64,000 bases of DNA, taken from assembly GCA_000004985.1 (NCBI GenBank), contig GG738881.1; one strand, 5' to 3'. The stretch's first letter is position 1. Every line of letters begins with the position of its first letter. The translations under genes were made by a program, and so were the position numbers. Source of the stretch: Naegleria gruberi. Its lineage: Eukaryota. Under the pieces are notes generated by a model, which was not told where the DNA came from, did no database searches, and saw nothing but the letters and a program-made list of their open reading frames with translations. This document shows, piece after piece, positions 57,254-64,000 of the stretch.

Positions 57254-60200
57254 TTATTGGAGTGAATAGGTAATTAAATACTTTGGATAAGCTTGTGAAT
57301 TTTTGTAAACAATGAAAATATCACTTCCACCAGTATTTCCCTTCACACTGTCATATCTTACAGCAGAGTTTGGCTTGAGAGGAGGAATTCTAATATTACT
57401 ATTTGAACTACAACTGTGAAAATCACCTGTTAACACTTCAGCAAGGAAAAATTTTCTGTAATTAGTACCTGGAACGGGAAAAGCATAGCCATTAGAATAA
57501 CTTGCATTGACAGCAAAATAACATCCAATTCCCCACATTCCAGTATTTGAAAATCTCATGTCAAATCCTTCATGACCATCATAGATAATGCTTGGATCTG
57601 TACTTCTTGTTCCATGGAACAATAATTGAGGATCGGTTGAATATTGTCCATTTGAATCAATCTTAATCTTGTTGATTCTATCTTGTTCAGTTTTATAACT
57701 TTGATAAACCAATTGATTTTGAACTTTTTCAATATTTTGAATCACTGCATTTGGAATGGTCAATTTAATTCTATCATTGATCATTTTCCATTCATTACTT
57801 GATTGAGATAAATTGATGAGAATTACATTTGAAGTTTGAAGCTGCCAATCTTGAGGATAACTGAATTTACTCAACAATTCAGGTTTATCAGCAATGGTCA
57901 AGAGAGCATATTCCTTAAATTTGTCAACTGTATACTTGAATCCAGTAATTGTAAATGGTGATACGTTCATATCAATCTTTAACATTCCATTATCAAATTT
58001 TGCTTTCATTGATGCATGTTCTGATAGAATGTGATCAATTACAAACTTGTTACATGATTTTGTTAAGGACTCGGTAATGTAGCTTTCTTTGATATTATTT
58101 CTAAAATTAAGCTCGAATGATTGAACATCTGAAGCTTCTCCATAAAGTCTGAATGAATAAACAGATTCAGTTACGCTTGCATATTTAGTTTTGCTAACTG
58201 ATTTAACAATTTGAATGGGAACAGTATCAGTAATTAGTATTCTGTTATGAGCAGATCCACTCACAAATGTGTAATGATTGTCATCTTGATCATAAACATA
58301 CAAGATGGAATTCTTATTCAAATCTGATGCAACATCAATGTTACACTTCACAATTTTTTGAATTGGTATCCTCTTAACTCTTCTTACATATTGAGTTTGT
58401 GAGTTGACTTGAACGTGCTCTTCTTTAAGGTAATCGAATTTCACAAAATATTTGATATCTTCAGAGGTATACTTTTCATTAGTCATCAGTACATTACATT
58501 CAGTATTTCTTTCATTATAGCTCCTTTCAATTTCTTTCATTTGATTTTCTCTATAAGGATTCCATGTCTTGTTATCATCAGCCAACCATAGCCATAAAGC
58601 AGTCAAATGTTCAGTATCCATTGTTGGAACATAAATAATCTTTCTCTTAAATTTAGAAGAATTTTCAATTTGTTCCATCTTGTCAAAGTCAATTTGGTAC
58701 TTTTTACCTTGTTCCGCATTCAAAATGAAAGTTGACTTGGGATCTTTTTCATATTCTTGACATAATTTACGATTATCATTCACTGTGAATGGCAAATACA
58801 TCTTTTTGATATCATCAAAATATTTGAAACATCCAACATATTCATCTTGTTCAATTTCAATAAATGAGGAATCATTCTTTGTATCTAATGTATAGACTAG
58901 ATCTGTTTGTAATAAGTTGATAGATTTTGAGAATGATTCAGTAACTGTATTAATATCACCAATCAGTATAATTTCCCTCAAACATGATAATTGTGGTGCA
59001 TATTTGTAAATTGTTCTGACAATGATATCAGTTGATTGATCAAGTGGGAATCCAAATATTCCAGATGAAAGTGCAGGAATAATGATTGAACAATATCCAT
59101 CCTTTTCTGCTTGAGTCAAAATATTCACAACTGTTTGTTCAAGTAAACTACATGAGTTAAGATGATTATTTGAATCATACATTGGAGGAATGGCATTATA
59201 AATCTTTGAGAGGTAACTGAGATTTCCAGCAGTTGTTGGAACTACATCACCTGGTTTGAGTTTAAGAGAGGTGGTAATATTTTTACATTCTTGATCAAAT
59301 TGTTTTCCACATTTCTCTAAACATTGAGCAGCAATTCCTCCACCATGTGCCAATTGGTCATTTGCACTGTTAACAAGTACTTGAGCTTTCCATTTCTTAT
59401 CAAACATGTCACCTTGACAAATGTAAATAAATGAATTCTCAATTTTGTGAACTTCCTTGATTCCACTGTCAAGTTTCTTTTCCAAAACAACCTTACCCTT
59501 TGTCTCAATATTCTTTTCTGAAAAGAATTTGAATTCATCATGTTGCATTCTAATAAAGTCAACCAATACTTTCTTTCTCACTTCCATCATTACTCTGTGA
59601 TAGGAATTGTCAATGAATTTGTACATATCTTGAGATGGTGCAACTAATGTAATTGATAGTCCTTGTTCTAAAATCTTTACATTATTTTGTTGAACTGACT
59701 TGAGAAGTGGTAATGCAAGATTCTTTTCAATAATATTATTAAAAGTCAATTTGATTCTCTTTTCTTTTGATTGCAAAAGTTCAGATTCAATTCTTGATTT
59801 CACTTCCTTCACATCTTCATCTCTTAATCCCTTGATATAAAAAGTCTTCTTATTTGAATCAAAATCAACATTAATTGATGAAATATCCTTCTTGAACTTG
59901 TCAATCTTGGTTTTAACAGTTACCTTTTTCAGTAAATGTTCATTGACTTGTTTTGCTTGAACAATATCAGAGCTTCCTTTCAACAATTCACTCAATTCAT
60001 TTCTAATCTTCATTTCATTTTCTTGATTTTCAACAATAGCAAATAAAATAATAATGTTCTTTGACTTTTCAGGTGCCAAAACTGTTGAGGCAGTTTGAAT
60101 TTCTGTTAATTGCTCAAAATATTTCTCACCTTCCTTTTTAACATCTTCTTTCAAAGAGGCATGGATAAATTGTAATTCCAATTTAACACTTTTAATTTTC

Positions 60201-61604
60201 TTAAGCTCTGCTTGCAATAATTGTCTTGCCTTTTTAGGTACATTTAATACGATCATCTTACTGGCATCCTTTTCGTCTCTCTTGCATTTGAATTCAATTT
60301 GGCCACTCTTTAATAAGTGAGAGCTGAACTTTCTCAAGAACTTATATTGTGTAGTTTCTATAGTTACTGGATTCTTTGTATCACCCTTCTTAATCTTGTT
60401 AAAAACTTTGTATTCACTTTCACTCTTCAAAGTACATTCAATTTGAAAGTTTTCATTTTGTTTGGTATATTTAAATTGAATATTTTTGTTAAACAATTCC
60501 TTTTTTGTAGCATCAAAATCATCCTTTGGAATTGAAAACTTAATTTTGAACAAATCAATAATTAATTGATTGTTATATATATCACTCAATGAAGTTAAGT
60601 GCCAAGTAGTGAAATTTTTCTTGGATTCTTCAATATATAAATATACACCTGGTGGCAATTTCTTTTGAACTTGGTCTTTCTTTTCATTGCTATTTTCATA
60701 ATAAAATTCGACGAATCTTGCAGGTTGCAATAACTTGATAACAAGATTTTGTAAATATTGTTGAACATTTTGAATATTTGGTTGTGTTGGTTGAATTTTG
60801 AAAGTAATTGTCTTATCTTTGATCTCAAATGAATTGTTTGTACCACCAGACATTTGTGATAACTCTCTTCTCAAGTCATCACTGAAGAATTTATCCAAGG
60901 CAACTGCTTTGATTCCAGTTGGAATTTCAATAGAATAAACTCCAGCAACAGTTTTCTTTGGCTTATTGTCAATGGTAATTTCAAGTGGTTCATTATAATA
61001 CTTGATGGAAGAACATTTTTCTTTGATTATCTTGGCAATACCATATGTTGAAATATTGACCCAAATAAGTTGTTTCTTCTTATTGGTAGTGAGTACAGGT
61101 TTAACTTTTTCTTCATTAAGAATGTTTCCAACTAATTCTGGAACAGTCAACTTGATATTGAAGAGTACATCATTAAAATCAACACCAAGAGGGAATACAA
61201 TACGAACAGCTTCAGTTACAACGGCACTAGATGTTGAATCAAACGAAGTGGAAGAACTAGGTGATACTTCTCTATCACTAAAGTTATCAATTGGTGTTTG
61301 AGGAGTTGAACTAATTCTTTGATTCATTCTCAAAGGATCAATTTGAATGTTAGTCATTTGTTGATTCATCATTTGACTATTATTCATAGTGTTATAATAG
61401 GTATTGTTGTTTGGATTACCATAATTATTATTGGTATTCATAGGTTGGTTATAATTCATAGAAATTTGATTAGTATTGCCATAATTATGCATACTACTAC
61501 CAGTACTATTATAATTCAAAAGCAATTGTTGATTACCACCACCCATTGTATTACTAATAGGATGAACCATGGTTTGATCATAAGGATTGTTCATACCATA
61601 ACCA

Positions 61605-61635
<31 letters not shown>

Positions 61636-61954
61636 AATTAGCATTAAAATCATATTGATTCATATTGGTATGATTATTAAGTAACAATCCATTTGAACCA
61701 TATTGATTGTTACTTAATGAATTGATAGGTTGTTGTTGTTGTTGGCCATTCATTGCTGAAGAATTAGTGTACATGTTGCTTTGAATGGGATCATTAAACA
61801 TTTGGTTATTATTACCACCATAACCTTGATAGAATTGACCACCATTATTGTACATATTTTGTCGGTGATTTTGCTCTTGGTTTGGTTGTTGGTTATAACC
61901 TTGTGTTTGATTTTGTGGAGTTAGCATATTTCTGGTTTGTTGAATAAAACCCAT
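57254..61954 (-). CDS. Macro-domain / WWE / PARP catalytic domain protein (PARP14-like mono-ADP-ribosyltransferase architecture) with a roughly 215-aa Q/N-rich prion-like N-terminus
   Basis: 1566-aa single ORF. Macro domain (…KAQVLVNSANDQLAHGGGIAAQCLEKCGKQF…). WWE-like segment (…HLTALWLWLADDNKTWNPYRENQMKEIERSY…). C-terminal PARP fold: LLFHGTRSTDPSIIYDGHEGFDMRF…GMWGIGCYFAVNASYS…SDIFIVYKNSQAYPKYLITY, with an H-Y-I triad (I in place of PARP1 Glu988). N-terminus is N/Q/G/Y-rich with an (ATT)n-encoded poly-Asn. Confidence 0.8.
61608..61632 (-). repeat. (ATT)n microsatellite encoding poly-Asn inside the PARP N-terminal prion-like domain
   Basis: attattattattattattattatta on the plus strand = (AAT)n on the coding strand = NNNNNNNNN. 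Confidence 0.8.
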
Positions 61955-62308: not shown

Positions 62309-64000
62309 TTAGAAAAGGCCGTGATCTCTCAAAGTCTTTTGTAAAATAATATCCTTAATATCATCCATAACCATCAAAGAAGCATCTTCACGTATCAAAT
62401 CAACAAAATGAGTGTATAAACACCGTTGTCTAATTGTTGGATCAACATTAATAAATTTCTCAGCAACAAAACTAGTGTAGAGGAATACATGATCACCAGA
62501 ATAATCAAAGTCTGGAAAACACATTCGAAGAGGAACAGATTTGATTCTTTTACGGAATATATCTAATTTTGTAAATACTAAAATGATTGGTGTATCTTTG
62601 TAAAAGCTTAAGATTTCTTTGAACATTGAAAGTGAATTATGCATATGGGAAACCAATATTTGGTTTTGAGTTGGAGGAACAAAATTTAGAGGGTCAACAA
62701 TTGGTGGGCTTTGAGGATTTTTAGTTGGACTAAAGTCAAGTAAGCTTAAAGAATATTCACAATATTCACTTAAAGAAACCATGAAAACAATTGCAGAAAC
62801 TGAATCTCTATCAAAATGAGAAGTCATCCACTTTCTTCTTTCATTTCTTTGTCCAGTAATATCTACAAACTCACATGGGAACGGAAAATTTAACTGACAT
62901 GTTTCAATAGATGTAGAAGGAAAATATGTAGTTAAAATATCTCTTGATGTTGGTGTATATCTTAGTGATGCTATTCTGTCAATATTATCAAAAAAGTATC
63001 TTGCATTGTAAAGTATTGAGTTATTTAAAGATAACTTGTCAAATGTGTGTTTTACGTATTTATCCTTCCATAAACTCTTAAATAATTCAACTGCTTCTGG
63101 ATTTAAGAAATTTTGAGTAATCTTATTAGATTCCTCTGATTGAGTATCATATTGTGATGGTTGTTTGTGGAATTGTTTTGAATCATTTTTAAAATTACTT
63201 AATCTTTGGTGAAGAACGTTTAAACTTTCATCCAATGATGATGAAACTCTTAAAGGAGATTTGTTCTTTGGAGTTATAGGTATGGATTGGCTTGTATTAT
63301 TACTAGCAGCACTATCACTATTGCATTCATTTTGTGTATTTAAAGTTTGATTAAACCTCCAAAGTTGAAGTAATTGAGCTCTTCTCCTTAAATTTTCTCT
63401 AAATTCTGTTTCCGTGACATTCTTAATTAAATATTTTGCATTATTCAATACAAATTTCAATATTTTACATTTAAATAATTCTACAACTTGTTCATTCGAA
63501 TAATCACCCTCTAATAATTTGATTTTTCTAATGAGGGTACTTTTTCCTGATTTACCAGATCCAAGAGTTAAAATTCTAACTTTTTTAGGTTTTTTAGAAT
63601 CCAACTCGATTTGCCTTTGGATTCTACGATCATTTTCATTGTTATCAACATCAGATGAAACTCTTTGAATGTTTGATGCTGATCGATCTAAACTATTGAA
63701 AGATGCTCTTCTACGAGGTGTTGTGGTTTTCTTTGAAGGTAAAGCATCATCACTTGGTGAATTACTTGTAGGAGATGGTGAACCAAAAACCATTTGATCA
63801 TCATTTTCTATTGCTAATTCAATCATGGCATGAGAAGATGATGATCCATTAACGTCTTCATCCTGAATTAGACTTGATGTAAAATCATTGATTGAACTCA
63901 AGTCAGCAGTTGATTGTCTAAGAATATTAGAATGTTCTCTATGATGATGCTCCCTATTCTGAGTTGATGATGATGATGGTATTTCATTATTCTCCAAAGA
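62309..64000 (-). CDS. Heterotrimeric G-protein alpha subunit-like protein, divergent; partial (N-terminus lies beyond the window end)
   Basis: G1 KVRILTLGSGKSGKST. Switch I DILTTYFPSTSIET (Tyr where the catalytic Arg sits). G3 DITGQRNERRKW. G4 FTKLD. C-terminal …YTHFVDLIRED…DHGLF lacks the TCAT (G5) box. More than 145 aa of S/N-rich sequence precede the G1 box, and there is an S/N-rich insertion in the helical domain. The ORF-track 'M' at 63997 is a TTG. Confidence 0.7.
   Translation of the reverse strand, partial: SLENNEIPSSSSTQNREHHHREHSNILRQSTADLSSINDFTSSLIQDEDVNGSSSSHAMIELAIENDDQMVFGSPSPTSNSPSDDALPSKKTTTPRRRASFNSLDRSASNIQRVSSDVDNNENDRRIQRQIELDSKKPKKVRILTLGSGKSGKSTLIRKIKLLEGDYSNEQVVELFKCKILKFVLNNAKYLIKNVTETEFRENLRRRAQLLQLWRFNQTLNTQNECNSDSAASNNTSQSIPITPKNKSPLRVSSSLDESLNVLHQRLSNFKNDSKQFHKQPSQYDTQSEESNKITQNFLNPEAVELFKSLWKDKYVKHTFDKLSLNNSILYNARYFFDNIDRIASLRYTPTSRDILTTYFPSTSIETCQLNFPFPCEFVDITGQRNERRKWMTSHFDRDSVSAIVFMVSLSEYCEYSLSLLDFSPTKNPQSPPIVDPLNFVPPTQNQILVSHMHNSLSMFKEILSFYKDTPIILVFTKLDIFRKRIKSVPLRMCFPDFDYSGDHVFLYTSFVAEKFINVDPTIRQRCLYTHFVDLIREDASLMVMDDIKDIILQKTLRDHGLF

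Follow-up and report, generated by a model that had tools for sequence, protein, structure and literature searches.

A Naegleria G-alpha protein with tyrosine at the arginine-finger position, a rewritten nucleotide site and a long N-terminal extension

The last 1.7 kb of a 64,000-nucleotide stretch of the Naegleria gruberi genome (contig GG738881.1 of assembly GCA_000004985.1; "the window" is this whole stretch) encodes most of a G-alpha protein, NAEGRDRAFT_70007, that has tyrosine in place of the arginine finger of switch I. We propose that this is a functional, Naegleria-restricted, extra-long G-alpha that would bind nucleotide, hydrolyze GTP slowly, exchange nucleotide fast, and be mostly GTP-bound. 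From the sequence comparisons described here, we give this reading about an even chance.

The open reading frame at 62309..64000 on the minus strand runs off the end of the window and encodes 563 amino acids plus a stop codon (62309..62311) without interruption. (The GC content of the window is about 32%.) Its product is 100% identical to the C-terminal 563 amino acids of XP_002675000 (667 amino acids; also EFC42256, or D2VM46 in UniProt), which identifies it as the single-exon 3' part of NAEGRDRAFT_70007, codons 105-667 plus the stop; the first 104 codons fall beyond the window's end. The gene is annotated only as "predicted protein". The original prediction for this locus, made from the window alone, had called for the missing N-terminus, and we obtained the full 667-amino-acid sequence from the protein database.

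The protein matches positions 2-333 of the 333 in Pfam's G-alpha profile (PF00503) at 235.6 bits (cut-off 48.8 bits, E = 1.1e-69). Four other Pfam matches are each below the curated cut-off, and we found no further credible Pfam domain in NAEGRDRAFT_70007. The closest solved relatives are Gi alpha-1 chains (phmmer against PDB sequences). For the G-alpha part, AlphaFold gave a model with a mean predicted local distance difference test (pLDDT) score of 80 and a predicted template modeling score (pTM) of 0.74, with the switch I blocks at pLDDT 89-95, and a Foldseek search with this model returned Gi1, Gt, and G13 chains (E ~1e-18, target TM ~0.8). NAEGRDRAFT_70007 is therefore a G-alpha with both of the expected domains, the Ras-like one and, set into it between G1 and switch I, the all-helical one. 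We looked for a second G-alpha elsewhere in the window and found none. Besides the two-domain fold (TM ~0.8) and the full-length Pfam match, the protein shares with Gi-type G-alphas (human GNAI1; PDB 1GIA and 1AGR) the GKST of the P-loop, DxxGQR, the RxERRKW of switch II, the alpha-N helix, and a C-terminal tail that ends in GLF. It differs from them in its missing cis arginine finger, in many other residues of the nucleotide site, and in its extension and insertions.

In switch I (DILTTYFPSTSIET, 62900..62941), Tyr463 (codon 62924..62926) is at the position of Gi1 Arg178, Ser466 is at Thr181, and Ser468 is at Gly183. The replacement of Arg178 by tyrosine had been predicted from the window, and a different register for switch I, with an arginine at position 178, was named as the result that would overturn it. 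Three independent alignments agree on the tyrosine: Tyr463 pairs with Arg178 in phmmer alignments to the Gi1 chains from PDB, in a MAFFT alignment of GNAI1 and 189 homologues, and in a profile hidden Markov model that we built from canonical G-alphas only. In each of them, the region that runs from the anchor PTxxDIL (more fully Y-x-P-[TS]-x-x-D-[IV]-L) to the anchor I-E is ungapped and has the top posterior probability. The only arginine nearby pairs with Gi1 Gln172, and it is lysine in the orthologues. Because all three methods give one ungapped register, we reject a shift that would bring an arginine to position 178.

We counted the residues in 185 other G-alphas, with the Naegleria orthologues set apart. 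Position 178 is arginine in 179 of these, lysine in four, threonine in one, asparagine in one, and tyrosine in none. Tyrosine is common to the orthologues from N. gruberi, N. fowleri, and N. lovaniensis and is found only there among the aligned sequences, which answers the question of whether the change is conserved. These proteins lack the intrinsic arginine finger of the G-alpha family; it is by losing this cis residue that G-alpha-s and G-alpha-i become oncogenic or toxin-locked.

The motifs GSGKSGKST (G1), DITGQR (G3), and TKLD (G4) are all where the original prediction had placed them. Besides switch I and the TCAT box, however, more of the near-invariant positions are altered than it had listed. 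In the P-loop (63536..63562), Lys254 (63551..63553) is at the position of Gi1 Glu43. This change (E43K) is found in all three Naegleria proteins and makes Lys254 unique among the 189 aligned sequences; 149 of the 185 others have Glu or Asp, and none has Lys. In the helical domain, Tyr435-Asn436 (63005..63010) replaces Asp150-Ser151, which close over the nucleotide (D150Y, the same in all three species; 173 of 185 others have Asp or Glu). The G3 motif at the start of switch II (62846..62863) keeps the Asp, the Gly, and the catalytic Gln488, but Thr486 (62855..62857) is at the position of Gly202. G202T is again common to all three Naegleria proteins, and the others have Gly (180/185) and never Thr.

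Switch III (62633..62749) is remodeled: an insertion of about 30 amino acids is followed by SHMHNS, and the pLDDT in this region is 54-64. Just upstream of it, Glu236 is replaced by Ser in all three species (E236S; Glu in 182/185 others). Arg242 is replaced by His in N. gruberi and by Asn in N. lovaniensis and N. fowleri (Arg in 169/185 others), and Glu245 by Asn in all three (E245N; Glu or Asp in 184/185 others). In G4 (62561..62572), TKLD is in place of NKxD, and the corresponding change, N269T, is shared by the three species (Asn in 183/185 others). The loss of the TCAT box of G5 had been noted from the window and is borne out: VDLI (62393..62404) is in its place, with Leu639 at the position of Ala326. 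Across the orthologues this is VDL(I/V), so that Thr324-Cys-Ala326-Thr327 becomes Val-Asp-Leu-Ile/Val; Ala326 is present in 165/185 others. Neither of the two elements of guanine specificity in G-alphas, NKxD and TCAT, is found in the protein.

The residues that contact the phosphates and Mg2+ are in a different state. The motifs GxxxxGK[ST] and DxxGQ and the hydroxyl residue of switch I are all present, with Ser at Thr181, which is a conservative change that is also seen in 11/185 others. Gly40, Gly42, Gly45, Lys46, Ser47, Thr48, Asp200, and Gly203 are retained across the three Naegleria proteins, as are the catalytic Gln204, Arg205, Glu207, Arg208, Lys210, Lys270, Asp272, and switch II. In switch I, Gly183 is Ser in N. 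gruberi, and N. fowleri and N. lovaniensis have Ala183 and Asn at Thr182.

The pattern is a coherent one: the chemistry of the phosphates and Mg2+ is kept, and the arginine finger, its salt-bridge partners, the acidic residues of switches II and III, and the elements of base recognition are rewritten. Glu43, Asp150, Arg178, Glu236, Arg242, and Glu245 make up a charged network that shuts over the nucleotide, and this network is rewritten; a network of the Glu43/Arg178/Arg242 type has been described for AtGPA1. The features of G-alphas that NAEGRDRAFT_70007 does not have are the cis arginine finger, NKxD/TCAT, and N-terminal lipidation. This residue pattern is distinctive, as it is shared by none of the 185 G-alphas that we compared.

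Full-length orthologues are present in N. lovaniensis (C9374_007155, 680 amino acids) and N. fowleri (FDP41_007699, 723 amino acids), and the partial Naegleria sequence P0042, the fourth of the group, likewise has TKLD and VDLI. We scanned 1.84 billion cluster representatives; the Naegleria proteins scored 583 and 287 bits, and the next match scored 134 bits. No non-Naegleria sequence among these representatives scored above 135 bits, and no sister group was found; the best named matches after the orthologues are G-alphas of a generic Gi type or from chytrids. As far as present data go, the orthogroup is confined to Naegleria.

The gene is annotated only as encoding a predicted or hypothetical protein, and the long low-complexity stretches might also raise the suspicion that it is a pseudogene or an artefact of annotation or alignment. 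We consider this very improbable. The reading frame is intact in three species (667-723 amino acids), besides the fourth fragment, and the three alignment methods give the same register. For N. lovaniensis and N. fowleri, a pair whose synonymous sites are not saturated, we compared 314 core codons and found dS = 0.51, dN = 0.017, and dN/dS = 0.034 (the ratio of nonsynonymous to synonymous substitution rates). Because of this low ratio in the core, the gene is not a pseudogene, and this disposes of the other result that had been named as refuting the original prediction. In the same pair of species, the N-terminal extension has a dN/dS of 0.31 and the helical-domain insertion one of 0.22.

The gene structure also argues against an artefact. 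A phase-1 GT-AG intron at ...SFIA|DKF... is conserved in N. lovaniensis (85 nt, L001 7892..7976) and N. fowleri (102 nt, L002 3020..3121). N. gruberi does not have this intron (the site would be at about 62450..62460 of the window), and therefore it was lost or gained within the genus Naegleria. An ENA protein for the N. fowleri gene (P0003, L002 1000..3099) has an odd C-terminus, GKLLKHECCVV..., which we rejected as a real variant: it is the unspliced intron read through. The NCBI model for N. fowleri (P0190, 723 amino acids) matches our spliced reconstruction.

How might such a protein work? If NAEGRDRAFT_70007 is a G-alpha with slow hydrolysis and fast exchange, then guanine nucleotide and Mg2+ would still be bound. 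Without Arg178, and with Thr at the position of Ras residue 59, GTP hydrolysis would be very slow, and the loosened interdomain and base contacts would lead to fast release of nucleotide. The protein would then be mostly in the GTP form, as an extreme version of the self-activating G-alphas that were measured in N. fowleri. Switching it off, if that happens at all, would need a partner that acts in trans, and its attachment to the membrane would have to do without N-terminal myristate or palmitate.

Strong constraint has preserved the phosphate and Mg2+ ligands along with the catalytic Gln, so nucleotide binding is probably retained. Looser retention of the nucleotide is expected because the latch of the Asp150-Lys270 type, the Glu43/Arg178/Arg242 lid, and Ala326 are lost. 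Since the alpha-N helix, switch II, and the C-terminal tail are conserved, the sequence also suggests that pairing with G-beta-gamma and a seven-transmembrane (7TM) partner is retained. Self-activating G-alphas such as AtGPA1 and Nf G-alpha5/7 are a kinetic class, defined by nucleotide exchange that is faster than GTP hydrolysis in vitro, and the sequence changes in the Naegleria protein point towards membership in it.

The original prediction of slow hydrolysis or altered nucleotide handling is plausible, in that it is consistent with what is known from mutants of related proteins. R178C is GTPase-deficient and is used as a constitutively active mutant of Gi1 (PMC10996109). Gi1 Gly202 corresponds to Ras Ala59 (D57-T-A-G-Q61 of Ras aligns with D200-V-G-G-Q204 of Gi1), and Thr or Ser at Ras 59 severely impairs both intrinsic and GAP-stimulated hydrolysis (GAP, GTPase-activating protein) and speeds exchange; it is also the autophosphorylation motif of v-Ras, RND, DIRAS, RASD, and ARL6 (bioRxiv 10.1101/2021.06.23.449327). 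In N. fowleri, hydrolysis by Nf G-alpha1 is tuned through variation in the P-loop at the Glu43 position, and self-activation is known for Nf G-alpha5 and 7 (PMC9283941). A substituted Ala326 is predicted to disfavor nucleotide binding, as has been argued for AtGPA1 and XLG2.

Some points weigh against our proposal. The case for nucleotide binding is one of motif retention, and the changes of Ala326 to Leu and of Asn269 to Thr could reduce affinity to the point of leaving the protein nucleotide-free in vivo, as has been argued for XLG2. Nor need hydrolysis be slow, since Tyr463 or Lys254 might make up in part for the lost arginine. Also, Ser468 of N. gruberi is the classic RGS-uncoupling change at Gly183 (G183S abolishes RGS binding; PMC10996109), but N. 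fowleri and N. lovaniensis have Ala there instead of Ser, so insensitivity to RGS proteins is not a conserved prediction.

The protein could instead be a nucleotide-independent pseudo-GTPase, like the plant XLG proteins, that offers G-beta-gamma, RGS proteins, or other partners a constitutive scaffold or decoy. We think this is unlikely, although several of the changes would fit: G5 is lost (Ala326 to Leu), Thr replaces Asn269, and the domains have lost their Asp150-Lys270 latch. In Arabidopsis XLG2, which binds nucleotide very weakly, the arginine finger is likewise absent, Lys replaces Glu43, and the Ala326 position holds a bulky residue. XLG1-3 are oversized G-alphas with long N-terminal extensions and no N-terminal lipidation, as in Naegleria, and a 2021 review groups the deviant Naegleria proteins with the XLGs (PMC8584482). 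However, XLG2 has lost the very residues that the Naegleria proteins keep. Its changes include G42E, K46A, DVGG to RLNP, and Q204R, while three Naegleria species keep the full set of phosphate and Mg2+ ligands, and the catalytic Gln with them, under the strong constraint described above. TKxD, moreover, functions as G4 in Rho-family GTPases. The N-terminal domain of XLG2 is Cys-rich, whereas the Naegleria extension is of low complexity and free of Cys, with no other Pfam domain.

The original prediction had likened the protein to pseudo-G-alphas, and this holds only loosely, since the P-loop Gly and Lys, DxxG, and the Gln are kept here and lost in XLG2. Membership in the XLG family itself we reject. 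XLGs have an N-terminal Cys-rich region and a nuclear localization signal, and the extension in N. gruberi is Ser/Asn-rich without Cys, with a basic cluster (KRKRR) that is found in this species only; XLGs also have a degenerate site without the P-loop Lys, DxxG, and Gln, all of which are retained in Naegleria. We saw no specific sequence affinity to the XLGs: the best named matches outside the orthogroup are the Gi-type and chytrid proteins already mentioned. The Naegleria protein is less degenerate than the XLGs and intermediate between them and canonical G-alphas.

It is also conceivable, though in our view doubtful, that the protein switches normally but with a cycle in the style of small GTPases. 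Tyr463 would close over the gamma-phosphate, and hydrolysis would be driven by a putative dedicated GAP in trans (an arginine-finger protein or an Asn-thumb RGS) or by Lys254 as a lysine finger in cis. The Mg-ligand Thr/Ser comes three residues after position 178, just as Thr35 of Ras comes three after Tyr32, and this is where Rap has Tyr32 and Ran has Tyr39; N. gruberi has Y-F-P-S where Ras has Y-D-P-T. The conserved Lys254, which no other aligned sequence has, is at the P-loop position that serves as a cis finger in GBP1 and atlastin. In Rap and Ran, the switch I tyrosine closes on the gamma-phosphate and is used by GAPs that have no arginine finger; Y32A is 25-fold slower (PMC2265111). RGS proteins can still switch off R178C (PMC10996109), and N. 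fowleri encodes more than 100 RGS-domain proteins. On the other hand, Pro465, the proline of Y-F-P-S, is Ala in the other Naegleria species, and both Ser468 of N. gruberi and the Asn/Ala at positions 182/183 of the others alter the contact surface for RGS proteins. Furthermore, Thr at Ras 59 impaired GAP-stimulated hydrolysis in K-Ras (bioRxiv 10.1101/2021.06.23.449327).

A stronger form of this idea, that the catalytic center has been converted to a small-GTPase design (Tyr at Ras 32, Thr at Ras 59, and Lys at the cis-finger position of GBP1 and atlastin), seems to us quite improbable. With the small GTPases that have a switch I Tyr and Ser/Thr at position 59 (Tyr32/39 of Ras, Rap, and Ran; v-Ras A59T; RND, DIRAS, RASD, and ARL6), the Naegleria protein does share the Tyr three residues before the Mg-ligand Thr/Ser, the Thr two residues after the Asp of DxxG, the TKxD form of G4, and the absence of a cis Arg. 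As a G-alpha that carries a helical domain, however, it stands outside these families, and the equivalence is only positional. If the idea were true, a heterotrimeric-type G-alpha would for the first time be found to rely on a trans-acting, finger-type GAP for switching off, or on autophosphorylation in the active site for its regulation, rather than on the canonical cis arginine with RGS proteins.

For a G-alpha with slow hydrolysis and fast exchange, which is the reading that we prefer, there are biochemical precedents from the same genus. The G-alphas of N. fowleri include Nf G-alpha1, whose P-loop (TAQ) deviates at the Glu43 position and which hydrolyzes GTP more slowly; Nf G-alpha5 and 7, which exchange nucleotide faster than they hydrolyze GTP; and Nf G-alpha6, which has a low-complexity insertion before switch I (Bosch et al. 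2022). In these proteins, however, the arginine finger is described as conserved, and the switch II Trp as present without exception (13 G-alphas; Bosch et al. 2022, PMC9283941). FDP41_007699 has Tyr at Arg178 and Phe at the site of the switch II Trp, so it may be a fourteenth N. fowleri G-alpha that is absent from the published list of 13.

The residue at that site varies within the orthogroup: at the position of Gi1 Trp211, N. gruberi has Trp495 (62828..62830), and N. fowleri (P0190) and N. lovaniensis (P0002) have Phe. The switch II Trp is the fluorescence reporter of G-alpha activation.

According to a 2021 review (PMC8584482, citing Anantharaman et al. 2011), N. gruberi has about 44 G-alphas, some of them with deviant catalytic motifs and no lipidation site. 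The accession numbers and locus tags of NAEGRDRAFT_70007 gave no match in the searchable text of the literature, and the gene is an uncharacterized member of a class that had already been flagged. This makes its value moderate, as comparative genomics had already pointed to deviant G-alphas in N. gruberi. What it adds is a case in which loss of the arginine finger is a fixed and selected state, in a nucleotide site that is otherwise intact, and one that is conserved in the brain-eating pathogen N. fowleri. It is a natural experiment in how the G-alpha cycle runs, or parks in the on state, without Arg178.

Outside the nucleotide site, a further difference from Gi-type proteins is the N-terminal extension, which is 225 amino acids long in the full protein (23% Ser, 11% Asn, no Cys) and is predicted to be disordered; its part within the window is at 63641..64000. 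More than 145 low-complexity residues before G1 had been reported, and this agrees with the 146 residues within the window and the 250 in the full protein. The claim of long S/N-rich extensions stands for the N-terminus but not for the C-terminus, as the other S/N-rich stretches are internal insertions. The usual N-terminal lipidation had been judged unlikely, and the full N-terminus (MPFNPFKYSKRKRR) agrees: it has no Gly2, and there is no Cys in the first 225 residues, so neither a myristoylation site nor a nearby palmitoylation site is present, provided that the gene models are correct. The MPFNPF... start in N. gruberi resembles the MPFKNF... start of the N. fowleri gene model, with MPF shared.

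The alpha-N helix (NENDRRIQRQIELDSKKPKKVR, 63575..63640) follows the extension and is conserved in the alignment of the orthologues; in G-alphas this is the usual region of contact with G-beta-gamma. At the other end of the protein, the C-terminal tail of alpha-5 (ILQKTLRDHGLF, 62312..62347) is Gi-like, and its sequence does not differ at all between N. gruberi, N. lovaniensis, N. fowleri, and fragment P0042. Between them are two insertions that Gi-type proteins do not have. The one in the helical domain, after helix alpha-A (63110..63343), is a low-complexity stretch with a pLDDT of 40-60, and its length varies: 78 amino acids in N. gruberi, 72 in N. lovaniensis, and 115 in N. fowleri. The other is the S/N-rich insertion of about 30 amino acids at switch III (62657..62749), where model confidence is low.

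Two short features of the N-terminal extension may be worth mentioning. Residues 10-14, which are beyond the window's end, are the KRKRR cluster, which could be a polybasic membrane signal or a nuclear targeting signal; it is found only in N. gruberi and is not conserved in N. fowleri. Residues 199-209 (about 63686..63718) may hold a conserved site of the basophilic-kinase type, PRRRASFNSLD, in this fast-evolving region. N. lovaniensis and N. fowleri have R-S-R-S-Y-D-H-L-E as against R-R-R-A-S-F-N-S-L-D, but this match was made by eye, and MAFFT left the stretches unaligned.

The order of neighboring genes differs between the species. Downstream of the G-alpha, N. lovaniensis and N. fowleri have a gene for an HMG-box protein on the opposite strand (L001 8218..9210; L002 3431..4165). 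In N. gruberi, the open reading frame directly downstream is on the same strand (57254..61954, minus) and encodes 1566 amino acids with an N/Q-rich N-terminus, a Macro domain, two WWE matches, and a PARP catalytic domain, which makes it a macro-PARP-type ADP-ribosyltransferase.

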